Below, one piece after another: positions 1-20,642 of a stretch of 64,000 nt of DNA (position 1 is its first letter; each line of letters starts with the position of its first letter). A model generated the notes under the pieces. The model searched no databases. It had not been told where the DNA came from and saw nothing but the letters and a program-made list of their open reading frames with translations. Origin of the DNA: an uncultured delta proteobacterium (GTDB taxonomy: Bacteria; Desulfobacterota; BSN033; UBA1163); assembly GCA_963711845.1 (NCBI GenBank), contig CAVQFR010000041.1, positions 21,182 through 85,181 on the forward strand, written 5' to 3'. The position numbers were made by a program, and so were the translations under genes.

Positions 1-1995
1 CGTTGCCCCGCCATAAACCTGACCTTCCAGAAGCATGGGATTGATCGCTCTCCCGACGTCGTGGGCAGCAATATATTTCAGGATCTTCACCTGACCGGTT
101 TCCTTATCGACTTCAACTTCCACGCCGTGTGTTCCAAAGGCATAGGTGACCGAGAGATTTCCTTTAAATTCTCTGTCCAAATTCTCGTTGGCAGGATCGT
201 AAAAGTAGTCTGCCATGATCATGCTTCCGCCGGCGGTATAGTGGGCAGCTCTTAGGACCTTTCCCAGAGGAGACTTCTTCTCGGGATCTTTCTTTGAGAA
301 GATCGTTCTATCCCGGATATCTAAATCCTCAGGGCTTTCGCCCAATGACTTAGCGGCGACCTCGAGGAGTTGGTTCTTTACTTTTCTCGCTGCACCTATT
401 GCAGAATTTCCAGCCACAAAGGTGGTTCGACTGGCATGGGCTCCAACATCCCAGGGACAGATATCCGTATCCGTATGGGTGACGACCACATCTTCAACCC
501 TGACCCCAAGTTCTTCAGCAGTGATTTGAGCGATCACCGTATCCGAGCCCTGTCCCATATCGGTCGCGCCGGTGATCACATTGACCGTTCCGAAGTCGTC
601 GATTTTTATGATGGTACCGCAACCATCTGATTTATAGACCCGGGCGCCTCCACCGACATGGATCATCGAAGCCATCCCGAGTCCTCTCCCATCTCTTCTT
701 CCTCGATTCTGGCGCCAATCCAACTTTTCTGCCACAACATCAATGCACTCCCTCAGGCCGCAGGTGTTGATCTTGAAATTCTGGGGCGTCACTTCACCGG
801 GGGTGTTGGCATTTCTCATTCTGAAATCAAGAGGGTCGATCCCGGCCATTTCGGCTAAGATATCAATCTGGGAATCGATCGCAAAGGTCGCTTGGGGATT
901 TCCATATCCTCTCATGGCTTGAGAATAGGTATTATTGGTATAAACACATTTGGCGACATACCGGATATTGGGGACTTTATACAGAGAGGAGATGGGCATC
1001 ATCATCACCGAAGGTGTGGTGGCGCCCCAAGAAGTGTAAGCCCCATTGTCGAGGATCATTCGAATATCGCGAAAGGTGAGTCTCCCATCCCTCGTGCATC
1101 CCTGAGCAATATCGATGATCGCAGGCTGTCTGGGAGAAGTGGCAAAAAACTCCTCTTCACGACCAAAAATGATTTTGACAGGTTTTCGGGTCTTGTGAGC
1201 TAATAGGATGGCGATGTACTCGAAGGCATAGGTATCGAGTTTGCTTCCAAATCCGCCACCGATCATCGTTTTGATCACCCGAACCTTCTTGTCCTTCAAT
1301 CCCATCGTAGCGAGGGCGTCCGTGTAATCCCGCTGAGCGAGAGATGGAATCTGAGTGATGCTGTACATGGTGAGATTATTCTTCTGGTCGAACTGAGCCA
1401 GGCATCCACTCGTTCCCAGGCAGCAATGAGCAACCCACGTCACCTTAAAACGATCTTCAGCAACATAGGAGGAATTCTTTCTTGCCTCGTCCACGTCTCC
1501 TGCAACAAGCCTCCAGGGGAGATTGAGGACATTGGTCGGCTTTTTCTCTTTGCCGCCCACATGTTCCTCATGGATGAGGATGGCCCCTTCTTTCATGGCC
1601 TCTTCGGGGTCGAAGATGGCAGGAAGAATTTCATATTCGACCTTGATGAGACAGAGAGCCTCCTCGGCGATATCAGGATCTGTGGCAGCGACCGCAGCGA
1701 TCTCATCTCGCAAAGAGCAAACTTTATTTGCCTTGAGAGGGACATTGTCTTTATAGACACCGAACTTGATGGGAGGAATGTTGTAGCCCGTTAAAACGGC
1801 CTTCACCCCGGGAAGCTTTTCTGCTTTAGAGGTATCGATACTTTTTATCTTCGCATGGGCATGGGAACTGTAGAGGATTTTCCCGTAAAGCATCCCCGGG
1901 ATCTTCAGGTCGTGAATATAGACCGCCTTGCCCGTGACCTTTTCCTCTGCGTCCATCTTGGGGATTCGCTTTCCAACGTTGATAAACTCTTCCAT
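1..1995 (-). CDS. Xanthine dehydrogenase family molybdopterin-binding large subunit (CoxL/HcrA-like), C-terminally truncated by the window edge
   Basis: Minus-strand translation from ATG at 1995 (RBS GGAGGT upstream) gives MEEFINVGKRIPKMDAEEKVTGKAVYIHDLKIPGMLYGKILYSS... with later Mo-hydroxylase motifs such as GGGFGSKLD. The ORF runs off the window, so it is not in the supplied ORF track. It is co-oriented with the FAD and 2Fe-2S subunit genes. Confidence 0.85.
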   Translation of the reverse strand, partial: MEEFINVGKRIPKMDAEEKVTGKAVYIHDLKIPGMLYGKILYSSHAHAKIKSIDTSKAEKLPGVKAVLTGYNIPPIKFGVYKDNVPLKANKVCSLRDEIAAVAATDPDIAEEALCLIKVEYEILPAIFDPEEAMKEGAILIHEEHVGGKEKKPTNVLNLPWRLVAGDVDEARKNSSYVAEDRFKVTWVAHCCLGTSGCLAQFDQKNNLTMYSITQIPSLAQRDYTDALATMGLKDKKVRVIKTMIGGGFGSKLDTYAFEYIAILLAHKTRKPVKIIFGREEEFFATSPRQPAIIDIAQGCTRDGRLTFRDIRMILDNGAYTSWGATTPSVMMMPISSLYKVPNIRYVAKCVYTNNTYSQAMRGYGNPQATFAIDSQIDILAEMAGIDPLDFRMRNANTPGEVTPQNFKINTCGLRECIDVVAEKLDWRQNRGRRDGRGLGMASMIHVGGGARVYKSDGCGTIIKIDDFGTVNVITGATDMGQGSDTVIAQITAEELGVRVEDVVVTHTDTDICPWDVGAHASRTTFVAGNSAIGAARKVKNQLLEVAAKSLGESPEDLDIRDRTIFSKKDPEKKSPLGKVLRAAHYTAGGSMIMADYFYDPANENLDREFKGNLSVTYAFGTHGVEVEVDKETGQVKILKYIAAHDVGRAINPMLLEGQVYGGAT

Positions 1996-2008
1996 GGCGA
2001 CCTCCGTT

Positions 2009-2431
2009 TCAAATACCAATCTCCAATATCGAAACATCAAATAAGCTCCAATGATCAATTCCCCAATTAATAAATTTGTCAGCAATTGATGAAAAAATCT
2101 TCTTCAATTCAAAAGCCTCTATTAATAATATGTCGATCTTTTCCTTAAATTCTGGATTTGCATCTATCAAAAGTTCCAGCCAGTAATGGGTTTCTTTAGC
2201 TTCTTTTCGTGCAATTTTGATTCGGTACTTGAAATCCTTTTTGCTTAAAGCATCATTTGCTTCGCGATAGTTTGCGCCAATCGAGCCGCTTGAATCTATC
2301 AGCTGGCCGATGACTTCATTATTGATCACATTTTGGGACAACTGTTTGCAAAGCCTTATTACCTTTTTAGCAAATTCAAGAGTTCGCTCTTCGAGATCAA
2401 AGCTATGTCTGGTTGTTTGTGAATTGGTCAT
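2009..2431 (-). CDS. Four-helix-bundle protein (23S rRNA intervening-sequence protein family)
   Basis: 140 aa. The pattern ...GANYREANDALSKKDFKYRIKIARKEAKETHYWLELL... is typical of TIGR02436-like four-helix-bundle proteins. The gene sits between the small and large Mo-hydroxylase subunit genes. Confidence 0.65.
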   Translation of the reverse strand: MTNSQTTRHSFDLEERTLEFAKKVIRLCKQLSQNVINNEVIGQLIDSSGSIGANYREANDALSKKDFKYRIKIARKEAKETHYWLELLIDANPEFKEKIDILLIEAFELKKIFSSIADKFINWGIDHWSLFDVSILEIGI

Positions 2432-2474
2432 TGATTATTATTTGGTTATTGAAATTTGGTTATCGGGTATTAGT

Positions 2475-2942: not shown

Positions 2943-3203
2943 TGTTTAAGCTCCTTCCCAAGGAGAATAACTGGCACCGCTATCGCTAAAAATCCGAAAT
3001 CCGAATATCGAAATCCGAATATCAAATCCACAAACTCTAATCGACCAAATTTTCAAAGAGCTTATCGGATTACTTAATAGTTTAAATTTCGAGTTTCGAG
3101 TAATTTGAATATTGTTTCGAATTGATCCCTTCGGGATGCTTCGCCCGGATTTCGTGCTTCGAATTTCAAAATTAACCCGCGGTTCATTCATAAAAGATGG
3201 TAA
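2943..3203. repeat. Intergenic heptad-periodic repeat element (AAATCCG/AATATCG tandem plus GGATTTCGTGCTTCGAATTT arm)
   Basis: aaatccgaaatccgaatatcgaaatccgaatatcaaatcc at about 2985-3030 and ggatttcgtgcttcgaatttcaaa at about 3140-3165. The same motifs recur in the intergenic region 15648-15860. Confidence 0.6.
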
Positions 3204-4175
3204 TTACCACAGCCTTTCAGGGAAGATGGTCTCTTCAGGCTGGACCACTCTCTCTATGGATTTCATCGCCATTCGTTTTACCAGGACCCTGACCATGTCT
3301 TTACGGTACCAGGCCTCACCTCGGAGCGTGTCCCTTGGCTGCGCTTCCTGGGAGGCGATATTTGCGACCTCCTCCAAGAGCTCGTCACTCAGTTTTTTAC
3401 CCCTGAGAAGGGCTTCGGCTTTCAATGCCCTCATCGGCGTCGGCGCCGCTACTCCCAAAGCAATCCTCACATCCTTACAGATGATTTCATCTTCTTCCAT
3501 CTTATGAAGGATGGTTGAAATAGGGGAGGCCGTGCAAAGCAGGTCGGAACAGGTGACTTTGTCCTTATCGAGTGAAAGAAGGACAGATACTCCTAAGATG
3601 GGGAGGTCCAGGGCGAGACGCCTCTGAAGTTTATAGTAAGCAGATCCGGTATTGGGCAAAGGCTTAGGAATCGATAGCTCTTTAACCAATTCCCCTGTTT
3701 TTAATACGCTTTCCCCTGGTCCTTTAAAGAATTCCTCAACGGGAAGGGTTCTCTCTTCTTTGAGGTTCTTGATCTTGACCTGAGTCCCGAGAACCAGAAG
3801 GGGAGTGGCTGTATCTGCTGAGGGGGCAGCCGTACAGACGTTGCCGCCAATGGTCGCTACATTACGGATCTGGACCGAGCCGAGATAATCCACCGCATCG
3901 GCTAAGGCGGAGAAATTTTTTCTGATGACCTCAGACTTCTCAATCGCCCGGTGAGTGACCATCGGTCCGATGCTCAAAGATCCATTGTATTTCATCTGGT
4001 CCAGACCCGGGATCCCCTGCAAGGAGATGAGGACGTCAGGAGCCATCGCTTTCTGCTTGATCATAACGATGACATCCGTCCCCCCCGCAATCAATTTTGC
4101 TTTCTCACCATATTTCGCAAGAAGGGTGAGAGCTTCCTCGAAGGTCTTTGGTCTAAAATAATCAAACTTTTTCAT
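3204..4175 (-). CDS. FAD-binding subunit of a molybdenum hydroxylase (CoxM/HcrB-like)
   Basis: 323 aa. FAD-binding fold (GGTDV..., AIGGNV). The order M-S-L matches CoxMSL organisation. Confidence 0.85.
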   Translation of the reverse strand: MKKFDYFRPKTFEEALTLLAKYGEKAKLIAGGTDVIVMIKQKAMAPDVLISLQGIPGLDQMKYNGSLSIGPMVTHRAIEKSEVIRKNFSALADAVDYLGSVQIRNVATIGGNVCTAAPSADTATPLLVLGTQVKIKNLKEERTLPVEEFFKGPGESVLKTGELVKELSIPKPLPNTGSAYYKLQRRLALDLPILGVSVLLSLDKDKVTCSDLLCTASPISTILHKMEEDEIICKDVRIALGVAAPTPMRALKAEALLRGKKLSDELLEEVANIASQEAQPRDTLRGEAWYRKDMVRVLVKRMAMKSIERVVQPEETIFPERLW

Positions 4176-4238: not shown

Positions 4239-5546
4239 TTATCTCACAAGATCGGATAAAACCAAAACGGTCCAGTAAGGGGAGAGACATAGGAGAATAT
4301 TAGCAATAAAGTAAGTAGGGATATAGTATACGGCACCTCTAAAGACAGTTCCGATGGGAATATCCTTAGCCATTCCGGCTACGACATAACAACAGATCCC
4401 GATGGGTGGCATGAGGGCTCCCATGGTGGTGGTGATCGTAATGATCTGTCCATACCAGATCGGGTCATAACCCATTCCCTGGACGATCGGGTAAAAGATG
4501 GGGAGGGATATTAAGAGAAAAGCCAATGCATCCATGACGCAACCGCCGATCATATAGCAGAAGAGGATGATCCAGAGCAACATCCAATTCGGCAACGCAA
4601 GCGTACTGATCCACGATGCCGCTTCGAAGGGTAATCGGGTCACGGCAAGAAAACGGCCAAAAATCGTGGCGCCCGCGACAATCATAAAAACCAGGCATGA
4701 AATACGAAGCGTGTCAACACAGGAAGCAACAAATCCCTTCCAGGTCAGTTTTTTTCTCACGATACAGATAATCAGACCCACGGCGCTGCTCGCTGCCGCA
4801 GCCTCTGTGGCAGTCACCATCCCTGTAAAAAGAGCGACCATGATGATAAGAAATAGGATGACGATATCGATCGCATCGGGAAGGGCCCTCCATCTTTCTT
4901 TCCAAGTGCTTTTAGGCCCTTTGGGACCCCAGTCCGGATGTCGATGACAGATGTAGACGACGGTGGCTGCAATTAAAAGGGTAAGGATGGCACTGGGAAT
5001 CACATTTCCGAAAAAGAGTTTGCCGATGGATTGACCCGTGTAGATGGCATAAACGACGAGCACAATACTCGGGGGGATCATGACCCCGAGGGTGGAACCG
5101 GCCACGACCGACCCTGCACTGAGCATCGGGTGGTAGTGATATTTTTTCATTTCCGGGATGGCGACGGAGCTCATGGTCGCAGCCGTTGCCGTATTCGAAC
5201 CGCTGATGGCTGAGAAGGCTGCACAGGCCATGATCGTGGTGATCGCTAAACCTCCTTTATAATGGCCAAACCATTTGTAGGTGGTAAAATAAAGCGTATT
5301 ATTATATCCTCCGTAATGAGCAAATTCTCCGACCAGGATGAACATGGGGATGACCGTCAGGCCATAATTCGAGAAGATATTCCACATATCAGTGCCGATC
5401 ATTCCAAGGGCTGCTTTGAAACCGGCCACATAACTGAATCCTAAAAATCCAACCAATGCCATCGTAAAGCCGACAGGTATCCTGAGGAGGAAGAGGACGA
5501 CGAACATGAGGAGAATTCCATAGACTCCAACGATCGGACCTTCCAT
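4239..5546 (-). CDS. dctM: TRAP transporter large permease (DctM family)
   Basis: 435 aa polytopic membrane protein with a typical DctM profile, immediately downstream of DctQ and DctP genes. Confidence 0.9.
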   Translation of the reverse strand: MEGPIVGVYGILLMFVVLFLLRIPVGFTMALVGFLGFSYVAGFKAALGMIGTDMWNIFSNYGLTVIPMFILVGEFAHYGGYNNTLYFTTYKWFGHYKGGLAITTIMACAAFSAISGSNTATAATMSSVAIPEMKKYHYHPMLSAGSVVAGSTLGVMIPPSIVLVVYAIYTGQSIGKLFFGNVIPSAILTLLIAATVVYICHRHPDWGPKGPKSTWKERWRALPDAIDIVILFLIIMVALFTGMVTATEAAAASSAVGLIICIVRKKLTWKGFVASCVDTLRISCLVFMIVAGATIFGRFLAVTRLPFEAASWISTLALPNWMLLWIILFCYMIGGCVMDALAFLLISLPIFYPIVQGMGYDPIWYGQIITITTTMGALMPPIGICCYVVAGMAKDIPIGTVFRGAVYYIPTYFIANILLCLSPYWTVLVLSDLVR

Positions 5547-5553: not shown

Positions 5554-6042
5554 CTAGTCCTCCTTGCTTTTTAAGTTCTTGAGAAAATCTATAATGAGTG
5601 TGAGGGAGAAGACTGCGAATCCGAATGCGACACTATAGATAAAGGGATGGAAGACAATTTTTAAGGTTTCCGAGACCTCTCCTGATTTCGATATCTTCAT
5701 GCCCCAGACGAATACCTGCCAGGAGACGATCGCAAAGAAAATCGTCGTAATAAAATAATTGATCCCATCGAGAACCCGGTTGATCCGTTTAGGAAACTTT
5801 TCTGTTAAGATGTCGACAACGATATGATCTTTTCTTTTCTGGGTGTAGCCGAGCGCAAAAGCGATGACGATGGCTCCTAAAAACCCGACGGTTTCATAGG
5901 CCCCTCGCCAGGTCGATTTAATCAAGGGGATTCTCAAAAAGGCATTCGTTGTTGCAATGGCCATGAGGAGGAGTACGGCGACGCTGCCTAAAACCATCAG
6001 GATCTTGTTGAAGAAAACATTTATCTTTTCGAGATAATTCAT
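5554..6042 (-). CDS. dctQ: TRAP transporter small permease (DctQ family)
   Basis: 162 aa with four predicted TM helices, positioned between the DctP and DctM genes. Confidence 0.8.
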   Translation of the reverse strand: MNYLEKINVFFNKILMVLGSVAVLLLMAIATTNAFLRIPLIKSTWRGAYETVGFLGAIVIAFALGYTQKRKDHIVVDILTEKFPKRINRVLDGINYFITTIFFAIVSWQVFVWGMKISKSGEVSETLKIVFHPFIYSVAFGFAVFSLTLIIDFLKNLKSKED

Positions 6043-6106: not shown

Positions 6107-7129
6107 TTACTTGTACTGCTTTTCGTACTTCTCCTTCAACGCGTTGACATCCTTCATGATCTGCTTGCCGTTTAACCCCGCTTTCGTCACTCTCTCAACA
6201 TAGCCGTCGATCAGGGGTTTAATCAGTTTGGGTACCTCGGCTTTTTCACTGGCAGGAAGTTCAAAGATCTGAAGGTTATATTTTTCCTTTGACCACTTGA
6301 GCGACTCCAGGACATGATTATCAACATAGTTTCCCGTCCAGAGCGCCCATTCCTTTCTCATGCCGTCGATCACTTTCTTCACGTCGGCAGGCAGTGAGTC
6401 CCACTTATCTTTATTCATCACGACGCTAAAGGTGACCACCCATAGGTTTGCAATGGTCGCATTCGCCGTGTATGCAGCATAGTTAAAGTCTTTGAGGACT
6501 TCCATGGAAGACACATGGCCTTTTACCGTCCCCTTCTGGAGCGCCTCGGGTGTATCGGACTGCGGCATGGCGACCGGGATCCCGCCCAGATTTTTTATGA
6601 TGTCGGCTTGAGTTCCCCCCACCCTTAATTCCAGTCCTTTTAGATCGTTAAGAGATTTCACCGGTTTAATGGTCATGATGTTCGCCGGCGGGCATGTAAA
6701 CAAGGTAATAATCTTTACCTTTTCAAATTCTTTGGGTTTATATTTTTCGATGAGATCATAGAGAGTAAGGCTTGCGGCTTTTGCGCTTGCAAATCCGACA
6801 GGTTGGTCAACCGCCTCTGAGATAGGGAAACGACCCGGTTGGTAGCTCATCGCTAAGCAACCAATATCCGCCGTCCCGGAGATGACCCCTTCGAACATGT
6901 TTTTCGGATTGAGCAGAGTGCTGCCGGGAAAGGTTTGGATGGCCACCTTTCCTGCGGTCCTTTTTTCCACCTCTTTTTTCCATTCCTCCATCTGGACACA
7001 CGGGAAAGTTGGAGCGGGGGGAAAGTTTGCATAAGTCAATTTAATCTGAGCCTGGGCGGGGAGGGATAATAAACTGATCCCCAATAAGAAGGCTACTAGT
7101 ACCATCATGGATATACTCTTTTGTTTCAT
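6107..7129 (-). CDS. dctP: TRAP transporter substrate-binding protein (DctP family)
   Basis: Signal peptide MKQKSISMMVLVAFLLGISLLSLPAQA. The likely true start is ATG at 7129 with AAGGAGG 10 nt upstream. DctP-like periplasmic binding fold. Confidence 0.85.
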   Translation of the reverse strand: MKQKSISMMVLVAFLLGISLLSLPAQAQIKLTYANFPPAPTFPCVQMEEWKKEVEKRTAGKVAIQTFPGSTLLNPKNMFEGVISGTADIGCLAMSYQPGRFPISEAVDQPVGFASAKAASLTLYDLIEKYKPKEFEKVKIITLFTCPPANIMTIKPVKSLNDLKGLELRVGGTQADIIKNLGGIPVAMPQSDTPEALQKGTVKGHVSSMEVLKDFNYAAYTANATIANLWVVTFSVVMNKDKWDSLPADVKKVIDGMRKEWALWTGNYVDNHVLESLKWSKEKYNLQIFELPASEKAEVPKLIKPLIDGYVERVTKAGLNGKQIMKDVNALKEKYEKQYK

Positions 7130-7167
7130 TTTCCCTTGACCTCCTTTCGAAGTTTCATAACTCATTT

Positions 7168-7186
7168 ACGGTATACTGTATACAAA
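7168..7186. promoter_or_regulatory. Putative GntR-type operator (GGTATACTGTATACAAAG) upstream of the TRAP operon
   Basis: A GTATAC-containing pseudo-palindrome. Two near-identical copies sit in the GntR/CoA-transferase divergent region (16985-17003 and 17122-17140). Confidence 0.45.
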
Positions 7187-7248
7187 GTGTCAACCTCCTG
7201 TCAAGCTTTATTGAGCGAAATCACCTCCTTTTTCTGATTTAAAAAGCA

Positions 7249-7770
7249 TCATATTTCTCCAATCGTTAGCCCGGTTTCCCCGTAAGGAAGAGGAACGATA
7301 AAAACCGGTTTTTTGGCTCGATCCAATACCGAGCGGGCCACACTCCCCAGAAAGGTTTGTTTTAAGAATCCTTTTCCATGGGTTCCAAGGACGATGATGC
7401 TGCAATCCTCTTCGTCCGCTGCTTTCAATATTTCCTCAACAGGATATCCCGGACGGACAAGGATGCTCGAAACCTGGGCAAGGCATTGGGGAGCCTCTTG
7501 GGTTTCTTGCTTACAAAATTCCTGTAATCGTTTTTTGATCCGTTCAATCGCTAAATCCTGCTCATATTTAATCTTTTCTTCCCATTTAGACTCATCGACA
7601 TAAACTTTCATATAATGTTTTGCTATGGAGGGAATAGGTTCAATGACATGTAAAATGATCATCCCTGCATCATACTTTTCTGCCATCTTTGTGGCATATC
7701 GAAATGCGTAGACAGAGTTTTTACTCAAGTCTGTGGCATAGAGAATTTTCTTTATTTGTGGGATCATCAT
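7249..7770 (-). CDS. Universal stress protein (UspA family)
   Basis: 173 aa with Usp-domain motifs (ILHVIEP..., VLGTHGKGFLKQTFLGSVA...). Confidence 0.85.
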   Translation of the reverse strand: MMIPQIKKILYATDLSKNSVYAFRYATKMAEKYDAGMIILHVIEPIPSIAKHYMKVYVDESKWEEKIKYEQDLAIERIKKRLQEFCKQETQEAPQCLAQVSSILVRPGYPVEEILKAADEEDCSIIVLGTHGKGFLKQTFLGSVARSVLDRAKKPVFIVPLPYGETGLTIGEI

Positions 7771-7868: not shown

Positions 7869-9161
7869 TCAAATGTCCCGATTATCAAAAACCCGTTTGC
7901 TCTTTCGCTCCGATCTCGGAAGGGTTCCGTAGTTAACGATCTCCACTTTGCCGCTGACCAGAATCTGTTTTTTAATCTCTTCCTCAATAGACCTGGCCAG
8001 GGTTAGGTCTTCTGTTGGATGACCCCCTTCCGTCCTTTCGACCTTAATCGTCATATAATCCTTGCCGTCTTCTTTTTGGTCAAGGTGAATCTGGTATTCA
8101 CTGCCCACCCCCTTTGTGTTGGACAGGATATGATCAATCTGACCGGGGTAGATGTTGACCGCCCTGATGATAAACATATCGTCCGAACGACCCAACAATC
8201 GGTCATGCATCGGAAGGATAGAGCCGCAAGAGCACCGCTTTGGAATGAGTTTGGTGAGGTCCCGGGTCCGGTAGCGGACAAGAGGAGCAGCTTCTTTCCG
8301 GAGGGTTGTGATCACCATCTCGCCCGTCTCTCCGGGGGGTACAGGTTGAAGAGTTTCGGGATCCAGAAGTTCAAGAATGTAGTAGTCTGCCCAGTAATGG
8401 ATGCCTTCGTGATAGAGACAATCGAGCCCTGTGCCGGGACCATAAAGTTCGGTCAACCCGGGGATATCGAAGACATGGTCCACACCCAGGAGCTCCTTCA
8501 TCTTCTTTCTCTGGGCATCGCTTGAACGCTCAGAGCCCATAATCAATTTTTTGAGAGCAATTTTGTTTCTCAGGACCCTCTTTTCGATTTCCTCTGCCAT
8601 GAGGATGCCCATCGAGGCGGTGCAGCATAAGACGGTTGATTGAAAGTCTTCTAAGAACTGACATTGCATATCGATATTGCCCGGACCGATGGGGATGGCC
8701 ATCGCCCCCAAACGTTCGACCCCTAACTGAAAACCAACTCCAGCCGTCCAGACGCCATATCCCACGGCAATTTGGACCCGGTCCTTCGTGGTCAATCCAG
8801 CCATCTCATAACAGCGGGCAAACATATTGGCCCAATCATTAATATCCTTCTGTGTGTAGCAAAGGACCTTTCGCTTTCCGGTCGTTCCGGAGGAAGCGTG
8901 TATTCGAACAATCTTTTCAAAAGGGGTTGATCTTAGCGGAAAAGGATATCCTTCCTGAAGATCTTTAGAGGTGGTGAAGGGAAGCTTAGAGATATCCTTG
9001 AGAGATTTGATATGCTGGGGCTTCACTCCCGCCTCATCAAATCGTTTTCGATAAAATTCAGAATTCTTATAGACATGGTTTACGGTCCATTGAAGCCCTT
9101 CCGTCTGAATCCGCTTCAGCTCCCTCTCCGTCCTGATTTTCGGCATGAAGGTTCGTCCCAT
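7869..9161 (-). CDS. Phenylacetate-CoA ligase family (PaaK / coenzyme F390 synthetase-like) aryl-acid-CoA ligase
   Basis: 430 aa with the PaaK-type AMP-forming ligase architecture (N-terminal ...KSLKDISKLPFTTSKDL...). RBS GGGGGA sits 7 nt upstream of the start. Confidence 0.85.
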   Translation of the reverse strand: MGRTFMPKIRTERELKRIQTEGLQWTVNHVYKNSEFYRKRFDEAGVKPQHIKSLKDISKLPFTTSKDLQEGYPFPLRSTPFEKIVRIHASSGTTGKRKVLCYTQKDINDWANMFARCYEMAGLTTKDRVQIAVGYGVWTAGVGFQLGVERLGAMAIPIGPGNIDMQCQFLEDFQSTVLCCTASMGILMAEEIEKRVLRNKIALKKLIMGSERSSDAQRKKMKELLGVDHVFDIPGLTELYGPGTGLDCLYHEGIHYWADYYILELLDPETLQPVPPGETGEMVITTLRKEAAPLVRYRTRDLTKLIPKRCSCGSILPMHDRLLGRSDDMFIIRAVNIYPGQIDHILSNTKGVGSEYQIHLDQKEDGKDYMTIKVERTEGGHPTEDLTLARSIEEEIKKQILVSGKVEIVNYGTLPRSERKSKRVFDNRDI

Positions 9162-13486: not shown

Positions 13487-13982
13487 GTTTACCCCCTCGT
13501 CTGAAATTCCAAATCCCTAAATCCCTGCTTACCGGCCCCGGTCCCGACCGAGGACGGGGCAGGCGGGTCAAACAAACTCCAAATTCCAATGTCAAATGAT
13601 CTGGAAGCTTTTGTTTGTGGTTTCGAAATGGATCCATCGGAGTTTATTTTTTATTTGATGCCTGGAATTGAGCGCCTTCCATGCTTCTCTTTCAAGATGA
13701 ACCTTCGAATCTTGCCGCTTGCCGTTTTGGGGGGTTCTTCAAAGATCAAAGCTTTCTTATGAGGTTGAAGAAAACTCGATTGCCGTATCCAATCACTGAT
13801 GTTAATCATCTTCAAACGTTCGAGTGAATTATAAGGCGATGAAGAAAGGATTCAATCACCTTCCCCTTTGATGCCTACCGGCAGGTGAGCAGGGGGGAAG
13901 GTCCTGACATATTGGAATAGTGGAATACTGGATTGTCGGAAACCCGTTATGCCAGTACTCCAACATTCCGTTACTCCATGTC

Positions 13983-15611
13983 TTAGAAGATGGAGGGTTC
14001 TTTAAACTCTCCGTAGACACCCTTAAAGACCTTTGTCATCTCACCCACAGTGGCATAAGCCTTACAGCATTCGAGAAGATAGGGCATGACGTTCTTCTCA
14101 GCCCTCGCAGCACTTTCGAGATCTTTCAGCAACTGTGAAACCTTTCGATTGTCCCTTTCGCGCTTCACCTCTCGAAGCCGCTGGACCTGTTCTTCTGCGG
14201 ATCCCAACCGGTATTCGTGGAGCTCAACCTCCATCTCTTCCCCTTCCGTATATTTATTTACTCCCACCTTGATCAACTCTCCCTTTTGGACCCCTTTCTC
14301 AAACTCGTAGGCCTGCCTCGCGACTTCTTTCTGAACGTAGCCCGTCTCAACGGCCTTGATCATCCCTCCCATTTCATCGACCCGCTTCATCTCCTCAATA
14401 ATTTTTTCCTCCATCTGTTTGGTCAAGGTTTCGATAAAGTAGGAACCCGCCAAGGGATCGACCGTATCCCTCAACCCAATCTCTTCCATCAGAATCTGGA
14501 ATGTCCTGAGAGAGAGGAGGGCTGCTCTGGGCGTTGGGATGGTGTAAGCTTCGTCAAAGGAACAGAGAGCAGTCGTCTGAGCGCCGCCTAAAGCCGCCGC
14601 CAGGGCATAGTACGCACCTCGAATGATATTGTTTTCGGGCTGGGCTTTGGTCATTCCATATCCGCCGCCGCCAAAGATTCCCCGCAAGAGGAGGGATCGA
14701 TTATCCTTGGCTCCGTAGCGCTCCTTCAGGTTTTTTGCCCAGAGTTTTCTTGCCGCACGGAACTTGGCTACTTGTTCCCAGAGGTTTCCAAAGACATTGA
14801 GGTTGAAGGTGAAGCCCCTGACAAAATCGTCGATGTGATGGCCACGGCGCAAGACTTCCTCGATATAGGTATTGGCAATCTGGAAGGCGTAAGCGATTTC
14901 CTGAACAGGAGAACAACCCGATTCGCGAATGTGATAACCACAAACACTGACAGGGTTGGTTCGGGGAAGTTCCTTCATCGAATATTCGATCGTATCACCG
15001 ATGAGACGTACGGCGGGTTTCACTGGAAAGATCCATGCTCCCCGTCCGATCATCTCTTTGAGAATATCGTTTTGAGGGGTAGCGCTCACTCGATCTTTTT
15101 TAAATCCATATTTTTCGGCAGTTGCCTGGAACATGGCCAGCATGATGCTTGCTACAGCATTGATGGTGAGGCCGGCGCCAATTCGGTCGAGTGGGATGCC
15201 CTGGAAGGCAACTTCGAAGTCTCTGAGAGAATCAACCGCCATACCTACCCTTCCCACCTCACCCTCCGCCAACGGGTCATCGGAATCGAGACCCATTTGG
15301 GTGGGAAGATCGAAGGCGACATTGAGACCGGTCTGGCCATGGGAGATCATCAGTTTGAAACGCTCATTGGTCTCTTTGGGCCTTCCGAAACCCGTATACT
15401 GCCGGGTGGTCCACTCCCGACTCCGGTAGCCAAGGGAATGGATTCCCCGGGTGTAAGGATATTCGCCTGGAAGACCTAAGTCCTTGTCCGGGTCAAAACC
15501 GATCGCTTCTAAATCCTTCTTCGTATAGAGAGGTTTGACGTGGATGCCAGATTGGAGGATCACATCCTGAACTTCGTCTTTCTCATTCTTGATATATTTT
15601 GCAACACCCAT
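13983..15611 (-). CDS. Acyl-CoA mutase large (substrate-binding TIM-barrel) subunit, methylmalonyl-CoA mutase family
   Basis: MCM catalytic-domain homology throughout. The likely start is ATG at 15611 with RBS GGGAG. The B12-binding domain is encoded separately, upstream. Confidence 0.85.
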   Translation of the reverse strand: MGVAKYIKNEKDEVQDVILQSGIHVKPLYTKKDLEAIGFDPDKDLGLPGEYPYTRGIHSLGYRSREWTTRQYTGFGRPKETNERFKLMISHGQTGLNVAFDLPTQMGLDSDDPLAEGEVGRVGMAVDSLRDFEVAFQGIPLDRIGAGLTINAVASIMLAMFQATAEKYGFKKDRVSATPQNDILKEMIGRGAWIFPVKPAVRLIGDTIEYSMKELPRTNPVSVCGYHIRESGCSPVQEIAYAFQIANTYIEEVLRRGHHIDDFVRGFTFNLNVFGNLWEQVAKFRAARKLWAKNLKERYGAKDNRSLLLRGIFGGGGYGMTKAQPENNIIRGAYYALAAALGGAQTTALCSFDEAYTIPTPRAALLSLRTFQILMEEIGLRDTVDPLAGSYFIETLTKQMEEKIIEEMKRVDEMGGMIKAVETGYVQKEVARQAYEFEKGVQKGELIKVGVNKYTEGEEMEVELHEYRLGSAEEQVQRLREVKRERDNRKVSQLLKDLESAARAEKNVMPYLLECCKAYATVGEMTKVFKGVYGEFKEPSIF

Positions 15612-15647
15612 AGTAAACTCCCAAAATCCGAATATCGAAATCTTCAC

Positions 15648-15860
15648 CCTGTTAAGTCATTCCGCCTGAAGTTGACGACTTTACTTTTCCTGGACGGATC
15701 GTGATACATCAAACCAAAAGCTACCCAAAACCTACTTAACAGGGCAGGCAAATCCGAAATTTAAATATCAAAATTCAAGAGGTTTCCGTTTGGGAAATTG
15801 GGTTTCTGGACATTTGTATTTGTTTCGGATTTCGTGCTTCGAATTTAAAGTTTTCCCCGA
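15648..15860. repeat. Intergenic heptad-periodic repeat element (same family as 2943-3203)
   Basis: aaaatccgaatatcgaaatc at about 15622-15642, caaatccgaaatttaaatatcaaaattc at about 15752-15780, and ggatttcgtgcttcgaatttaaag at 15820-15845. Confidence 0.6.
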
Positions 15861-16262
15861 TCAAGATCGGGGTTTAATATGTTCTTTGATCCATCGGATC
15901 GATTCGTCGAAAGAGGTTCCTCCGGGAAAGATGCCCTGGATCCCAATCTTTTGGAGAGGAGGGATATCCCGTTTGGGGATGACACCGCCAATGACTACCA
16001 GGATATCATCGATCTTCTTCTTTTCCATTTCCTTCATCAGTTTTTCACAGATCGGCAGGTGGGCTCCGGACATGATGGATAGGCCGATGACATCCACACC
16101 CTCCTGGATGGCGGTATGGGTGATCTGATCGATGGTCTGATGAAGGCCGGTGTAAATGACCTCCATCCCCGCATCACGGAGGGCTTGCGCCACCACTTTC
16201 GCCCCTCGATCATGACCGTCCAAACCAGGTTTTGCGACTAAGATACGAATTTTTTTCTCCAC
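15861..16262 (-). CDS. Cobalamin (B12)-binding small subunit of an acyl-CoA mutase
   Basis: 133 aa. B12-binding Rossmann domain with a DxHxxG-type motif (GLDGHDRGAKVVAQAL). Confidence 0.85.
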   Translation of the reverse strand: MEKKIRILVAKPGLDGHDRGAKVVAQALRDAGMEVIYTGLHQTIDQITHTAIQEGVDVIGLSIMSGAHLPICEKLMKEMEKKKIDDILVVIGGVIPKRDIPPLQKIGIQGIFPGGTSFDESIRWIKEHIKPRS

Positions 16263-16274: not shown

Positions 16275-16961
16275 TTAAGGAATCATTCTCCCCTCATCAA
16301 TTTCCCTTAAAACAAGTTCCTTGCCTCTCGCCAGATGCTTCCGGACAAGCCTTTCTGCCAATCTTGGGTTCTTCTTCTTCATCGCTTCCAACATCTGACG
16401 ATGGTCTTTATGGGAGGAGCTTACGCCATCTTGTATATGGAGCAAGGCAGACCGATACCGATAAAAATAGTCGCGGAAGGTATTGATCATCTCGACCAGT
16501 TTTTTGCTTTTACAGGATTTGTAGAGGAGATCATGGAATTCAGTGTTTAGCTGAACGACCTTATCATGGTCTCCTTTCTCCAAGGCATCCTCCGATTCCT
16601 TCAATTTATTCTCCAAAATGGAGATTTTGTCCGGGGCCATATGAAGGGTGGCTAAATAAGCAGCATAACTCTCGAGGGCACTCCGAATTCCAAAGATTTC
16701 CTCCACGTCCTCTTTTGTGAATTCCCTGACCGCAAAACCCCCTTTGGGAAGTCGGGTGACTAATTCATCCTTTTCCAGTTTGTGGAAAGCCTCTCTGACA
16801 GGGGTACGGCTGATTCCCGCGTGATCGGCCAATTGCTCCTCAATGAGATGCTGGCCGGGTTTCAATTTTCCGTGAAGAATAGATTTTCTTAATGACTCAT
16901 AGACTTCTTCCCGTAGGGATTTCTTTTTGCGGATCCGAAGGCCTCCTAATGTCGTTTCCAT
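16275..16961 (-). CDS. GntR family transcriptional regulator (FadR/FCD subfamily)
   Basis: 228 aa. N-terminal wHTH (ISRTPVREAFHKLEKDELV) followed by an FCD ligand domain. Divergent to the CoA-transferase gene. Confidence 0.9.
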   Translation of the reverse strand: METTLGGLRIRKKKSLREEVYESLRKSILHGKLKPGQHLIEEQLADHAGISRTPVREAFHKLEKDELVTRLPKGGFAVREFTKEDVEEIFGIRSALESYAAYLATLHMAPDKISILENKLKESEDALEKGDHDKVVQLNTEFHDLLYKSCKSKKLVEMINTFRDYFYRYRSALLHIQDGVSSSHKDHRQMLEAMKKKNPRLAERLVRKHLARGKELVLREIDEGRMIP

Positions 16962-16984
16962 GGAACCCTCCTTTTTTTAGTTAG

Positions 16985-17003
16985 AATTTTGTATACTGTA
17001 TCC
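16985..17003. promoter_or_regulatory. Putative GntR operator copy (TTGTATACTGTATCCAG)
   Basis: Shares the GTATAC-N-GTATMC motif with 7168-7186 and 17122-17140. Confidence 0.4.
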
Positions 17004-17121
17004 AGAGTAACCTCTTTTTTATATGCCAAGGGTCTTGGCTTGTCAAGGGTTTTTTGGTGAGGAAACGGGATAGGGAAGGGGAAAAGGCTTGACACCATCA
17101 GGGTTTTGGGTATATATAATT

Positions 17122-17140
17122 TTTTGTATACAGTATCCAA
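17122..17140. promoter_or_regulatory. Putative GntR operator copy (TTGTATACAGTATCCAA)
   Basis: Same motif, about 25 bp upstream of the CoA-transferase RBS. Confidence 0.4.
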
Positions 17141-17163
17141 ATCGAGACCAGGAGGCGATTTTC

Positions 17164-18282
17164 ATGGACGAAGTCCAACTTTTTGAACATATTACTGTTT
17201 TGAGTCTCGAACAGGCAACTGTTCTCCCCTATTTAACCCTCCGTTTGGCTGAGGAAGGAGCCCATGTCATTCGCCTTGAACATCCCATCTACGGTGACCC
17301 GAACCGGAGGATCGGGGACGATGTCCTGAAAGAGGACAGAATGTTTTCCTACTACCTCTCCATCAATGCGGGAAAAAAGGCTTTGACGCTGGACTTGGCA
17401 ACCCCGGAGGGAGCAAAAATCTTGAAGGAACTCGTCCTCAAACTGAAGGTGGATATCTTTGCCACCAACCAACTCCCCAGAAATTATGCTAAGCTCGGGA
17501 TTGAATATCAGATGCTTAAGAAGATTAAAGAGGATATTATCTGGTTGGGGATGACCGGTTTCGGTCCGCAGAGTAATGAGGCCGCCTATGATCCTGTGCT
17601 GCAAGCAAGAGGAGGATTGATGGACCTCACCGGTGAAAAAGGAGGAAGCCCTCAGGTGATGGGGATACCTCTCCCTGATATGGGAGCGAGTGAACACGGT
17701 TATGGCCTCTTAATGAAGGCCCTTTATAAAAGAGCCGTTACAGGACAAGGAAGCCGCATCGATCTCTCGATGTTCGAAAGCACGGTCTCCTGGCTCACTC
17801 AGGCCATCACCCATACGGTTTCGTTCAGGAAAAAGGTGACGCGAAGGGGAAATACTCACGAATTCTTTGCTCCGGTTTCCGTTTACGAGACAAAGAATGG
17901 CTATGCTTACATTGCCTTGGGAAATGACCGGCAATGGGAGACAATGACCAAGATTCCAGGGTTTGAATCTCTCTCCAAGAGAGAGTATGAGCGAAACGCA
18001 GGCCGGATTGCCGATGTCGATAATCTCAACCGGGCACTCAATACGATTACAGGAAACTTTACCACGGAGGAATTGATGGATACCTTTAATAAGGCCACTC
18101 TTCCCATCTCCAAGGTAAATTCAATTGAAGAAGTCGTGGAGGATCCCTTTGTCAAACCCAACTTGATTCGAAGCAAAGATCCAAAGACAGGGATTGGAAA
18201 TCACCATTGCCCCCCCGTCCGTCGAATACCTCGTTCTGAAATCGATCAATCGAATGACTCGCTTTCCTCCCCGATTCGGTGA
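17164..18282 (+). CDS. CoA-transferase family III (CaiB/BaiF/benzylsuccinate-CoA-transferase-like)
   Basis: Family III CoA-transferase signature (LSLEQATVLPYLTLRLAEEGAHVIRLE...). The likely start is ATG at 17164 after AGGAGG. The longer ORF from 17089 reads through the promoter/operator. Confidence 0.85.
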   Translation: MDEVQLFEHITVLSLEQATVLPYLTLRLAEEGAHVIRLEHPIYGDPNRRIGDDVLKEDRMFSYYLSINAGKKALTLDLATPEGAKILKELVLKLKVDIFATNQLPRNYAKLGIEYQMLKKIKEDIIWLGMTGFGPQSNEAAYDPVLQARGGLMDLTGEKGGSPQVMGIPLPDMGASEHGYGLLMKALYKRAVTGQGSRIDLSMFESTVSWLTQAITHTVSFRKKVTRRGNTHEFFAPVSVYETKNGYAYIALGNDRQWETMTKIPGFESLSKREYERNAGRIADVDNLNRALNTITGNFTTEELMDTFNKATLPISKVNSIEEVVEDPFVKPNLIRSKDPKTGIGNHHCPPVRRIPRSEIDQSNDSLSSPIR

Positions 18283-18502
18283 ACACAACGAGGAGATTTA
18301 CGGTGGGCTCTTGGGATATAGTAGCGGCCGGCTGAAGGAGTACAAGGAGAAAAATATTATTTAGTTATGAGTTTTGAATTTAGAATTTGGAGGTTGAGAC
18401 TTGTTTGGGATTTGTGATTTTGGATTTAAGTGTGTCCAAATCAGAAGAATGGTCCAAAAACTGCTGGCGATCATTTGCATCATACGCCCAAAGGAGTGAG
18501 CC

Positions 18503-19663
18503 ATGGCACTTGACTTCAGTTTTACAGAAGACCACGAGTTCTTCAGGCAGACAGTCCGGGTTGCTGTGAAGCGTTTAATCATACCCCGGGTCAAGGAACT
18601 GGACGAAAAAGAGGAATTCCCCTGGGACCTCTGGAAGGAATTTGCTGCCCTGGGGTATCTCGGTCTAAGACACGAAGAAAAATACGGGGGCATGGCAACC
18701 GATATCATTAGTCAGATGATCTTCTATGAAGAACTCGCAAGGGGATCTTGCGGATTTGCTATGTCGGTAATCATGCAGATTCTCATGGGAACCTATTTCA
18801 TCGCCCGTTTTGGAAGCGAGGCCATCAAACAAAGAATCCTTGTGCCAGCGATCAAAGGCGAGAAAATCGGAGCAATCTGCTTTACGGAAGACCAGTCCGG
18901 TTCTGACCTTGCTGGAACAAGAACTGTCGCAACGAAGGTGGATGGAGGTTGGAGGATCGACGGCCGAAAACAGTGGATCACCAACGGTCCAATTGCTGAA
19001 TTCGCTACAGTGATGGCAACGGTGGATCGGAAAATGGGCCTTAAGGGTCTTAATTTTTACCTCGTAGAAAGGAAGACGGAGAATCGTGATGGGTTCGTCC
19101 CCGGCCAGAAGATCCATAAATTGGGCTCTCGCTGCTCGGTGACAGGGGAATTGGTGTTCGACAATGTCTTTGTTCCTGATGAGAATTTCCTGGGAGAAGA
19201 GATTGGTAAAGGGGTTCAGTACGCAGGGGAGATATTAAATGAAGTCCGGGTGATGACTGGTATGAATGCTTTGGGGATTGCAAAAGAAGCCATGGAAGAT
19301 GCGAGGCAATATGCCAATAACCGAATTGCTTTTGGAAACCCTATCAGCAAGTATCAACTCATTCGCGAAAAATTTGCCAAATTCTGGGCCTGGTATGAGG
19401 CTTCGCGAACCTTCCTCTACAAATGCGCATGGATGATTCAAAACAACATTCCTTGTACTAACGAATGCATGTTGGCCAAATATCATTCTGCAGAGATGTG
19501 TATGTACGCGGTGGAAGAGGCCATGAGGATCTACGGTGGAAACGCCTTCTGCAGTGAAATCTCTGTTCAACGATTCTGGAGAGATGCCAAATTCCTGCTC
19601 TATGGTGGTGGCACCCATGAAGTTCTGTGTGACTATCTGGGAAGGATTTACTGTAAAGATTAA
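18503..19663 (+). CDS. Acyl-CoA dehydrogenase
   Basis: 386 aa with the ACAD fold (N-terminal helical, beta and C-terminal helical domains; ...YGGNAFCSEISVQRFWRDAKF...). Confidence 0.9.
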   Translation: MALDFSFTEDHEFFRQTVRVAVKRLIIPRVKELDEKEEFPWDLWKEFAALGYLGLRHEEKYGGMATDIISQMIFYEELARGSCGFAMSVIMQILMGTYFIARFGSEAIKQRILVPAIKGEKIGAICFTEDQSGSDLAGTRTVATKVDGGWRIDGRKQWITNGPIAEFATVMATVDRKMGLKGLNFYLVERKTENRDGFVPGQKIHKLGSRCSVTGELVFDNVFVPDENFLGEEIGKGVQYAGEILNEVRVMTGMNALGIAKEAMEDARQYANNRIAFGNPISKYQLIREKFAKFWAWYEASRTFLYKCAWMIQNNIPCTNECMLAKYHSAEMCMYAVEEAMRIYGGNAFCSEISVQRFWRDAKFLLYGGGTHEVLCDYLGRIYCKD

Positions 19664-19812
19664 CATAACCCCCCTGCGCCCCCTGCCCGCCGGGAGGCAG
19701 GCTCTTGAAAAATCGATTGAGATTTAGAAAAATGTAACGCTTTCTCAACACAGAGTCACGGGGAGCCTAGGACCTCTGAGGTGAAACTGATTATGAACGA
19801 GGGTCGCCTTCG

Positions 19813-20085
19813 ATGAAGATCACCGAAAAGCTGGCCCTCGATGCCTTTAAAAACGACAAAGAAAGCCACATCACCCTTGATCAAAAAATCTGTCACCCCT
19901 GTAAAGAACGATTCTGTATTTATGCCTGTCCGGCAAACCTTTACGCCCTCAGCGAAAAAGGAGAGATGACCGTCGAATTTGCCGGGTGTCTGGAATACGG
20001 CACCTGCATGATTGCCTGCGTCTATGGTTCCGTGAAATGGAAACATCCCAAAAGCGGATTTGGTGTCCAGTATCGGTTTGGATGA
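19813..20085 (+). CDS. fixX: FixX-like ferredoxin
   Basis: 90 aa. The pattern CHPCKERFCIYACPANLY...CLEYGTCMIACVYG is the FixX-type ferredoxin-like protein normally found with EtfAB/FixC. Confidence 0.75.
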   Translation: MKITEKLALDAFKNDKESHITLDQKICHPCKERFCIYACPANLYALSEKGEMTVEFAGCLEYGTCMIACVYGSVKWKHPKSGFGVQYRFG

Positions 20086-20642
20086 TGGAAACCAAATCAA
20101 TCCTCGGCAACGCTCTGGCGCTGATTTGCTATCAACCTGAAGCGAACTCCTTAGCCCGATTGTTTCCATGTTTCCAGACTTTCCTGGGATGTTAAAATCT
20201 GATGGTCACCCCCTTCTTCTTTCAGGACTACCCAATCACCGCCCATAACCACTCTTGCTACTTCATAGATTTTCCCAGTATCGGGCTTAATAAACCTGTC
20301 ACCCTCCTTAGCCCTTTCCACAGTTCCCCACCCCTGCTTTAAAGCCTAAGTCAATAACCATATCTACGATGAAGAGTGTATTAAATTAGGGACGGAGTGT
20401 CAATTAAAGAATGGGAAGGATGGTTTGGGGGTTCGGTAATCGAATAGACCTCTGTTGAAGACCCCAAGCGTTGACACTCTTAATCAAACGGTGTAAATTT
20501 CTTGTTAATACAAACGATTCCCTCATAAAGGAAAACGTTTTTTGAAGAGAGCTCTGTCTTTTGAGGATTCTTAAGTATTGGTAGATAGCCACGGAGGACA
20601 GGACTCCGAAGCGTTATACAGGGAAATAGCATAGAGTAAAAA

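Follow-up and report, generated by a model that had tools for sequence, protein, structure and literature searches.

Background

To our knowledge, the anaerobic fate of auxin (indole-3-acetate, IAA) and of tryptophan-derived indoles is known biochemically only from two denitrifiers. The reference operon, in the work of Ebenau-Jehle from 2012, is said to contain a hydantoinase-like pair (IaaC/E), an XDH-family Mo enzyme, a GntR-type regulator, a fusion of a hydratase and a 3-hydroxyacyl-CoA dehydrogenase, and a thiolase. This operon, iaaABCDEFGHIJKLMPQR, is that of Aromatoleum aromaticum EbN1 and Aromatoleum (Azoarcus) evansii KB740 (locus name in PMC9613470); indoleacetate is first activated by the ligase IaaB (PMC8360864), and the lactamase acts on the CoA ester (PMC5214803). 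The dehydrogenase IaaF belongs to a subclass in which GGG replaces the catalytic YEG of other family members, and the re-oxidant of the characterised enzyme is unknown (PMC8360864). For strict anaerobes, it is stated that iaa operons carry a paralogue of the electron-transfer flavoprotein (ETF), and such operons were predicted in Desulfatiglans anilini, other sulfate reducers and Ferroglobus placidus, as relayed from Schuhle 2016 (PMC8360864). Here, we analyzed a stretch of 64,000 nucleotides from an uncultured member of the Thermodesulfobacteriota (contig CAVQFR010000041.1, positions 21,182 to 85,181; hereafter the window), the first 20 kb of which hold a gene cluster resembling these iaa operons.

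As judged from its sequence, this is most probably an iaa-type cluster for the anaerobic catabolism of indole-3-acetate or indoleacetyl-CoA. Five independent lines of evidence support this reading, namely a dehydrogenase of the GGG clade, a mutase that keeps a Tyr/Arg pair, a hydantoinase pair of the lactamase type, the similarity of the binding protein DctP to a solved protein taken to be the IAA-binding Dde_0634, and one operator shared by the promoters of the cluster. An earlier sequence-only reading had recognised a co-localised catabolic gene set, mostly on one strand, at 1-20100, and had likened it to iaa clusters; Pfam and NCBIfam scans recovered all of its gene families within 1-20085, and Pfam placed each of them where that reading had (Table 1). 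The same reading had put the GntR regulator together with a FixX ferredoxin. Both genes are present, but FixX follows the dehydrogenase and does not lie beside gntR. Its suggestion that, in a sulfate reducer or other strict anaerobe, the locus would carry the pathway into a new lineage has been overtaken, since iaa operons of sulfate reducers and of an archaeon had already been reported.

When likened by the roles described in PMC8360864, and not by sequence identity, the cluster has in common with the operon of EbN1 and KB740 a candidate for the ligase IaaB, the CoA-transferase (IaaL), the mutase (IaaGH), a dehydrogenase with GGG (IaaF), a periplasmic binding protein (IaaM in the reference) and regulators. 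It also resembles that operon in its hydantoinase-like pair, XDH-family Mo enzyme and GntR-type regulator. The hosts differ, EbN1 and KB740 being denitrifying betaproteobacteria while the window comes from a strictly anaerobic lineage, and the window has two divergent units with an internal promoter, TRAP-type uptake and an orphan FixX, and is without the hydratase/dehydrogenase fusion and the thiolase. The iaa operons predicted for strict anaerobes, compared by description and as far as they are relayed in that source, are alike in their strictly anaerobic hosts and, with respect to most relatives of the window, in having an iaaF orthologue together with electron-transfer genes; in the window and its relative L001, etfB, etfA and fixC have been lost and only fixX is left.

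We infer a pathway of eight steps. DctPQM would take up indoleacetate (step 1), which the PaaK-type ligase would convert to indoleacetyl-CoA (step 2) and the three-subunit Mo-hydroxylase would hydroxylate at C2 to the 2-oxo (lactam) form (step 3). An ATP-dependent lactamase of the hydantoinase A/B type would then open the ring to (2-aminophenyl)succinyl-CoA (step 4), the family III CoA-transferase would shift CoA to the right carboxyl group (step 5), and the B12-dependent mutase would rearrange the product to (2-aminobenzyl)malonyl-CoA (step 6). The IaaF-type dehydrogenase would oxidise and decarboxylate this compound to 2-aminocinnamoyl-CoA (step 7), and its beta-oxidation to 2-aminobenzoyl-CoA would need genes elsewhere in the genome (step 8).

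IaaF-type dehydrogenase and electron transfer

Residues 368-370 of the window dehydrogenase read GGG, as in the IaaF subclass, and are invariant in 14 aligned members of its clade. The clade is discrete (members 61-98% identical, next relatives at most 47%) and is reduced to one representative at 50% clustering; its members occur in bins labelled Thermodesulfobacteriota, Aminicenantes, Myxococcota, Fischerbacteria and others. A scan of species-representative genomes with the dehydrogenase gave 252 matched stretches, the best 80 of which were examined as loci: all 80 are from metagenome bins, at identities of at least 61%. Dozens of environmental copies are 88-98% identical, and one member of the clade (66% identical) was named benzylmalonyl-CoA dehydrogenase by JGI. 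Among plasmids, no gene of the IaaF type was found (40% identity for the best of 887 matching records), the PDB has neither an Iaa protein nor a solved structure close to the dehydrogenase, and cluster look-ups for its relatives returned no cultured names. A homologue search started from the divergent dehydrogenase of locus L079 led to Syntrophorhabdus-type bins, with no Desulfatiglans or Aromatoleum among them.

In most relatives, the dehydrogenase gene is followed by genes for ETF-beta, ETF-alpha, a FixC-type oxidoreductase and FixX, an order that agrees with the ETF paralogue published for iaa operons of strict anaerobes. The window FixX is 86% identical to that of L083, which follows ETF-beta, ETF-alpha and FixC, and in both the window and L001 FixX alone comes directly after the dehydrogenase. 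It is an orphan left after the loss of etfB-etfA-fixC. In L083, these three genes are flanked by similar palindromic elements with TGGAATG / CATTCCA units (L083:11162-11342 and L083:14500-14681). A deletion of etfBA-fixC by recombination between such GGAATG-type repeats was considered and is not supported, because the spacer between dehydrogenase and fixX in the window is unrelated to the elements of L083.

In L006:7898-8617, L083:7914-8633, L008, L016 and L018, the gene in front of the CoA-transferase encodes a conserved protein of 239 amino acids that matches nothing in Pfam or NCBIfam. It was found at this place in every case where the mutase operon is not next to the transferase-dehydrogenase-ETF module; the window has the divergent gntR there.

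Mutase, hydantoinase pair and Mo-hydroxylase

The cluster might be read as a chance assembly of unrelated modules, made up of a 4-hydroxybenzoyl-CoA reductase, a phenylacetate-CoA ligase, a central methylmalonyl-CoA mutase (MCM) and an oxoprolinase or acetone carboxylase. One of these enzymes is the top named model or solved structure for the Mo subunit, for the ligase and for the mutase.

Both genes of a split B12-dependent mutase are present. The large subunit scored 455 bits on the MCM equivalog NF006944 (cutoff 876), and its top-scoring match in the PDB is the 2-hydroxyisobutyryl-CoA mutase 4R3U. MCM and 2-hydroxyisobutyryl-CoA mutase have the same fold, and the layout with separate large and small subunits is likewise shared. 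In MCM, Tyr89 and Arg207 hold the carboxylate of the substrate. Aligned to 1REQ, the window protein keeps the Tyr89 position in RQYTGF and the Arg207 position in MIGRGAW, whereas 4R3U has Ile and Gln there. Overall, it is thus nearest to hydroxyisobutyryl-CoA mutase, yet of the MCM type at these two positions. The kept Tyr/Arg pair, read in the light of what is generally known of MCM, points to a carboxylated, succinyl-type substrate, i.e., a substituted succinyl-CoA, as predicted for an IaaGH-type (aryl)succinyl-CoA mutase. No MeaB gene adjoins the mutase in the window, whereas locus L086 has one.

The hydantoinase pair scored highest on the caprolactamase models. Subunit A reached 537 bits on CapA against 324 (ApcC, the best) and 218 on the acetophenone carboxylase subunit models, and subunit B 231 bits on CapB against 117 on ApcD. 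Subunit B has about 556-578 amino acids (its homologue in L085, 96% identical, has 556), which is the short, Hyd-type length; the length of the beta subunit is a published criterion for this type (PMC5214803). The model scores and this length support an ATP-dependent lactamase of the IaaC/IaaE kind and not a ketone carboxylase. The caprolactamase CapAB is alike in the two-subunit HydA/HydB architecture, the top family models and the Hyd-type beta length; it differs in that both window scores are far under the model cutoffs (1000) and that the predicted substrate here is 2-oxoindoleacetyl-CoA. The combination that the sequence-only reading had named as telling against it, an acetone carboxylase-type pair with a mutase of central metabolism, was thus not found, as the caprolactamase models scored higher and the MCM equivalog was missed.

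For the XDH-family enzyme, three subunit genes were found under the operator of the cluster. The window edge truncates the Mo subunit. Its full length of 767 amino acids was read from L081, the contig used for the left extension, which is 99.7% identical to the window over the part that they share; about 102 residues, at the C-terminus, lie beyond the window start. Its closest solved relative is the alpha subunit of 4-hydroxybenzoyl-CoA reductase (HcrCAB), 1RM6_A, with 454 bits (next, 300 bits); this reductase is an XDH-family enzyme with an aromatic CoA thioester as its substrate. However, none of the reductase equivalogs was reached: the NCBIfam model 4hydrxCoA_A gave 646.6 bits on the Mo subunit (cutoff 994.55), the beta model 123 (cutoff 405) and the gamma model 179 (cutoff 258). 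The FAD subunit matched HcrB (1RM6_B) best over residues 4-115 only, with 77 bits, and it seems to be without the iron-sulfur insertion of HcrB. The gene context points to a hydroxylase and not to a dehydroxylating reductase, and enzymes of the same type adjoin iaa-type genes in other lineages. A Mo subunit with a relative of the CoA-ester type fits the published scheme in which CoA activation comes first and the lactamase acts on the CoA ester afterwards.

A different Mo-hydroxylase, with an FAD subunit and a FeS-Mo fusion of 929 amino acids that is 37% identical to the window Mo subunit, lies downstream of dehydrogenase-ETF-beta-ETF-alpha in L029:13471-17400 and also in L022, L027 and L031. 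Since these are the closest relatives with the full cluster, the hydroxylase module has been exchanged between close lineages.

The chance assembly is hard to reconcile with these results. The equivalog cutoffs of the supposed enzymes were not reached (647 against 995 for 4hydrxCoA_A, 410 against 646 for PaaK, 455 against 876 for MCM), the FAD subunit matched the reductase beta subunit along its first 115 residues only, and the top model of the hydantoinase pair was caprolactamase. In addition, one operator links the three transcription units and the same combination recurs across lineages, as described below. We regard a chance grouping as extremely improbable, and keep to the iaa-type reading.

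Uptake, activation and CoA transfer

The ligase clearly belongs to the PaaK family and is a candidate for the indoleacetate-CoA ligase IaaB. It scored 410 bits on the PaaK equivalog (cutoff 646), and its top PDB match is the phenylacetate-CoA ligase 4R1L; homologues 62-64% identical adjoin IorAB (indolepyruvate ferredoxin oxidoreductase) and DctP in other loci. A family III CoA-transferase, the IaaL-like candidate, is encoded on the opposite strand.

The uptake genes provide a line of evidence that is independent of the enzymes. The best PDB matches of DctP are 4N6D (366 bits), 4PGN/4PGP (337) and 4NAP (335), and the next TRAP binding protein has 117 bits; the alignment to 4PGN is gap-free over 307 amino acids at 46% identity. 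The 4PGN/4PGP protein belongs with the window DctP to one small subfamily that stands well apart from other TRAP binding proteins. We take 4PGN, 4PGP and 4NAP to be Dde_0634 of Desulfovibrio alaskensis G20 with bound indolepyruvate, indole-3-acetate and D-tryptophan; ligand binding by the window DctP is predicted. Since the reference IaaM reportedly belongs to an ABC-type system, the window DctP would be a functional analogue, and not an orthologue, of this periplasmic binding protein for uptake. Dde_0634 binds IAA (PMC9973260, PMC9543091), and a full-text index has '4PGP' and 'Dde_0634' together in one of these two papers.

A shared palindrome, the probable GntR operator

GT...AC palindromes are the usual targets of GntR/FadR-type regulators. 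The palindrome TGTATAC-W-GTATMCA occurs at three sites in the 64 kb (0.09 expected per shuffle), all of them at promoters of the cluster, to which the GntR/FCD-family regulator also belongs (Table 1). The copy in front of dctP overlaps the -10 element of a promoter-like site (TTGACA-18-TACAGT, 7204..7175, minus strand). Of the 41 loci of relatives in the window's clade, 32 have a copy of the operator immediately in front of the transferase, including loci in which the transferase-dehydrogenase module is away from the mutase operon, and variants of it were found in four further groups of loci.

One palindrome at exactly three cluster promoters suggests that all modules form one GntR regulon. 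The GntR/FCD protein would probably repress three transcription units through this operator, i.e., gntR-mutase-lactamase-ligase, transferase-dehydrogenase-fixX and dctPQM-Mo-hydroxylase. By the same token, we infer that the transferase-dehydrogenase module belongs to this regulon even where it is unlinked.

Recurrence in other lineages

The full gene set was found again in L086, a locus from a Syntrophorhabdaceae-like clade, with identities to the window of 83% for HydA, 78% for HydB, 74% for the ligase, 74% for the mutase large subunit, 68% for DctP and 68% for the transferase (56-83% in general, except for the regulator with 44% and the Mo-enzyme subunits). This locus has DctMQP, Mo-FeS-FAD, the transferase, MeaB, two dehydrogenases, GntR, the mutase, HydA, HydB, the ligase and a second set FAD-FeS-Mo; for the set found downstream of the ligase, identity to the window is 47% (FAD subunit) and 61% (FeS subunit). 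The gene set also recurs in L022, L027, L029, L031, L061, L076, L079 and L085. Among these, L085, L022, L027, L029 and L031 share the part from ligase to dehydrogenase at 84-96% identity, and in L061, a locus of Myxococcota, a single operon carries the whole set. The closest relatives of the window come from metagenome bins that carry the labels Syntrophaceae, Syntrophorhabdus or 'delta proteobacterium'. Synteny bears out the sequence-only reading, the mutase, lactamase, Mo-hydroxylase, transferase and IaaF-type dehydrogenase occurring together across lineages.

IorAB neighbours and a probable entry from tryptophan

Just left of the window, as seen in L081, an operon convergent with the Mo gene encodes an IorB-like protein and a protein of 1195 amino acids. 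Residues 1-583 of the latter match the alpha subunit of indolepyruvate ferredoxin oxidoreductase (646.3 bits, cutoff 650.9), and the remainder corresponds to a GltD-like NAD(P)-binding module. This operon (L081:14579-20972) also has a HoxU/NuoG-like Fe-S protein fused to GcvH (427 amino acids) and a NuoF-like protein. The same IorA-GltD-like fusion lies directly upstream of the mutase in L061:29-3005, and the fused form appears to be rare among IorA relatives.

A metagenome scan anchored on this IorA gave 18 loci with at least 45% identity and about 3 kb or more of flank. Iaa-type genes lie beside IorAB in 10 of these 18 closest loci, and in four of the 10 the genes run IorA-IorB-FAD-FeS-Mo, their Mo subunit sharing 48-59% identity with the window's; among more distant IorA loci, this is so in only 1 of 49. 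Indolepyruvate ferredoxin oxidoreductase makes arylacetyl-CoA from arylpyruvate, and this chemistry, taken together with the conserved adjacency, suggests tryptophan-derived indolepyruvate as a second entry. The IorAB proteins encoded outside the window would probably supply indoleacetyl-CoA from it. A degradation of tryptophan by an iaa-like route was reportedly proposed for Ferroglobus placidus by Aklujkar in 2014, a work that PMC7201606 cites.

The chemistry could then be as proposed and the physiological substrate something other than free auxin, either indolepyruvate from tryptophan via IorAB or a related aryl- or heteroaryl-acetate, with TRAP transporter and ligase as a side entry. IorAB is conserved beside the HcrA-like Mo-hydroxylase and other iaa-type genes, the solved relatives of DctP were reportedly also crystallised with indolepyruvate and tryptophan, and substrate range cannot be read from sequence. 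However, the cluster brings its own uptake system and its own ligase, both placed under the one operator, and this argues for an external free acid; IorAB in the window's lineage is in a separate, convergent operon. We consider this alternative rather unlikely, and it complements the reading as an IAA cluster more than it excludes it.

Beyond the locus itself, we tentatively put forward a wider view, which seems possible though less than probable: in strict anaerobes, the iaa route would serve mainly the catabolism of tryptophan and indolepyruvate, with entry at indoleacetyl-CoA through a dedicated IorAB subfamily (in this lineage fused to a GltD-like NAD(P)H module) that is genetically coupled to the HcrA-like CoA-thioester hydroxylase, and dehydrogenase-ETF-FixCX, joined by the transferase in the window's clade, would be a movable module that a conserved operator keeps in the regulon, run here without an ETF and FixC of its own.

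Evidence against an iaa assignment and signs of possible decay

Several observations weigh against the iaa-type reading. GGG is also present in a few more distant acyl-CoA dehydrogenases, so that it is not diagnostic alone. Close homologues of the ligase carry only the JGI name phenylacetate-CoA ligase, and the molecule name given for 4PGN/4PGP, which we take to be Dde_0634 with bound indole ligands, is only generic. No enoyl-CoA hydratase, 3-hydroxyacyl-CoA dehydrogenase or thiolase was found in the cluster, its left extension or the 64 kb, and the whole window has no ETF or FixC, only FixX, and thus no dedicated ETF. Finally, most of the longer IaaF-anchored loci have the dehydrogenase with ETF/FixCX and no mutase or lactamase within 10 kb; in the window's clade, these loci have the transferase in front. 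They contradict the published claim that all clade members lie in iaa operons, unless clusters are split, and the regulon shared with an unlinked module would explain them.

A further point is that the CoA-transferase gene is split by one extra T near 18194 (a frameshift of one nucleotide), as seen from two tblastn pieces in different frames and from the single-base insertion relative to L085 and L001. It raises the question of whether this strain has a decaying cluster that has ceased to work, as the loss of ETF and FixC, both kept in relatives, the remnant of an acyl-CoA synthetase (ligase), the inserted repeats and the four-helix-bundle gene could also suggest. In the same window, two unrelated genes, SelA (41108-42542, minus) and an RluD-type pseudouridine synthase (40078-41111, minus), are each split as well, probably by assembly indels, and the window differs from L081 in the pattern of such indels, with 9 gap openings in 11 kb and a HydB gene that is split in L081 and whole in the window. 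For these two reasons, the frameshift is read as a probable assembly error and not as decay. Every other gene of the cluster is intact, with 88-96% identity to numerous environmental copies, and L086 and L085 are likewise without ETF beside the dehydrogenase. Decay is, in our estimate, quite improbable.

Locus extent and neighbouring genes

The cluster consists of two divergent series of genes, from gntR to the Mo gene on the minus strand and CoA-transferase, dehydrogenase and FixX on the plus strand. It extends about 310 nucleotides beyond the window start (the rest of the Mo gene), and its left end, read from the L081 contig, is the Mo gene. To the right of about 20.2 kb, housekeeping genes follow (tadA, two tRNA-Ser genes, signal recognition particle RNA, dnaX and recR). 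Base composition does not set 1-20 kb apart from the rest of the window, so that an 'island' in the sense of horizontal transfer is not supported, and Rfam found no riboswitch or other RNA family inside the cluster.

Table 1. Features of the cluster by position in the window
Feature	Position	Strand	Models and remarks
Mo-binding subunit, XDH-family hydroxylase	1-1995 (cut by window edge)	minus	Pfam Ald_Xan_dh_C, MoCoBD_1, MoCoBD_2
Four-helix-bundle protein (23S rRNA intervening-sequence protein family)	2009-2431	minus	PF05635, TIGR02436
2Fe-2S subunit	2475-2942	minus	Fer2_2, Fer2
REP-like intergenic repeat	2946-3191	none	open reading frame of 81 amino acids spurious; no Pfam or NCBIfam match
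FAD subunit	3204-4175	minus	FAD_binding_5, CO_deh_flav_C
DctM	4239-5546	minus	Pfam DctM
DctQ	5554-6042	minus	Pfam DctQ
DctP binding protein	6107-7165	minus	Pfam DctP
Operator copy 3	7170-7184		GGTATACTGTATACA; in front of dctP, overlapping the -10 of the promoter-like site
Universal stress protein	7249-7770	minus	PF00582
PaaK-family aryl-acetate CoA ligase, IaaB-like candidate	7869-9161	minus	AMP-binding, AMP-binding_C_2
Hydantoinase B-type subunit	9299-11089, start probably 10978	minus	PF02538
Hydantoinase A-type subunit	11300-13486	minus	Hydant_A_N, Hydantoinase_A, Hydant_A_C
Acyl-CoA synthetase C-terminus remnant	13651-13815	minus	translation contains PPKTASGKIRRF
B12-dependent acyl-CoA mutase, large subunit	13983-15647, start probably 15611	minus	PF01642
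B12-binding mutase, small subunit	15861-16262	minus	PF02310, TIGR00640
GntR/FCD-family regulator	16275-16961	minus	GntR and FCD domains
Operator copy 1	16990-17004		TGTATACTGTATCCA; about 30 nucleotides upstream of gntR
Operator copy 2	17125-17139		TGTATACAGTATCCA; 25 nucleotides upstream of the CoA-transferase start
Family III CoA-transferase, IaaL-like candidate	17164-18363	plus	PF02515, 253 bits
IaaF-type acyl-CoA dehydrogenase, candidate (2-aminobenzyl)malonyl-CoA dehydrogenase (decarboxylating)	18503-19663	plus	four acyl-CoA dehydrogenase domains
FixX-type ferredoxin-like protein, 90 amino acids	19813-20085	plus	NF011993 (FixX) 54 bits, below cutoff

The list of the earlier reading did not have the universal stress protein gene, the four-helix-bundle gene, the acyl-CoA synthetase remnant or the frameshift in the CoA-transferase. 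The four-helix-bundle gene sits between the FeS and Mo genes, is absent there in L086, where FeS and Mo abut, and is probably outside the pathway. The remnant fills the spacer between hydantoinase A and mutase, which is much shorter in L086 and L085, and its C-terminal signature PKTASGKIRR we take to be that of AMP-forming ligases.

REP-like repeats (AAATCCGAAATCCGAATATCGAAATC and its complement) fill cluster spacers at 2946-3191, 13574-13597, 15614-15859 and 18373-18396. The units AAATCCGAAATCCGAATATCGAAATC / CGGATTTCGTGCTTCGAATTT of the first of these recur in the third, which separates the mutase large and small subunit genes, and it is at the first that the window and L081 differ by an indel. 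The open reading frame of 81 amino acids at 2946-3191 was rejected as a gene, being repeat DNA. Between the cluster and tadA, a stretch of low GC (20100-22250, 0.41) has no recognisable gene; an open reading frame of 196 amino acids within it (20643-21233) has no Pfam match.

Elsewhere in the window, a formate dehydrogenase alpha gene (47477-50437, minus) has an in-frame TGA at HQARI*HSATV, a selenocysteine codon, and is followed by a Fer4_11 subunit (46728-47462) and FdhE (45669-46547); a tRNA-Sec gene lies at 36607-36700 (minus). At 26781-33226 (plus), gamma, alpha and beta subunits of a 2-oxoacid:ferredoxin oxidoreductase are followed by NuoE-like, NuoF-like and 2Fe-2S/4Fe-4S proteins, which could be an electron-confurcating or NADH-linked module. 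An unrelated carbohydrate locus of higher GC (0.53-0.58) at 52245-59919 (minus) encodes a sugar-type ABC transporter (binding protein, two permeases and a MalK-like ATPase), a LarA-like protein, a short-chain dehydrogenase and a PfkB kinase.

Conclusions

The HcrA-like three-subunit Mo enzyme is a candidate for the enzyme that hydroxylates indoleacetyl-CoA, and the ETF-FixCX module of relatives, apparently lost in the window's lineage, is a candidate for the re-oxidation of IaaF. The operator offers a testable target for the regulator. Soils, sediments and digesters commonly contain auxin and indoles derived from tryptophan, and this cluster, with its many relatives, shows the predicted pathway to be widespread in uncultured, syntroph-like Thermodesulfobacteriota.

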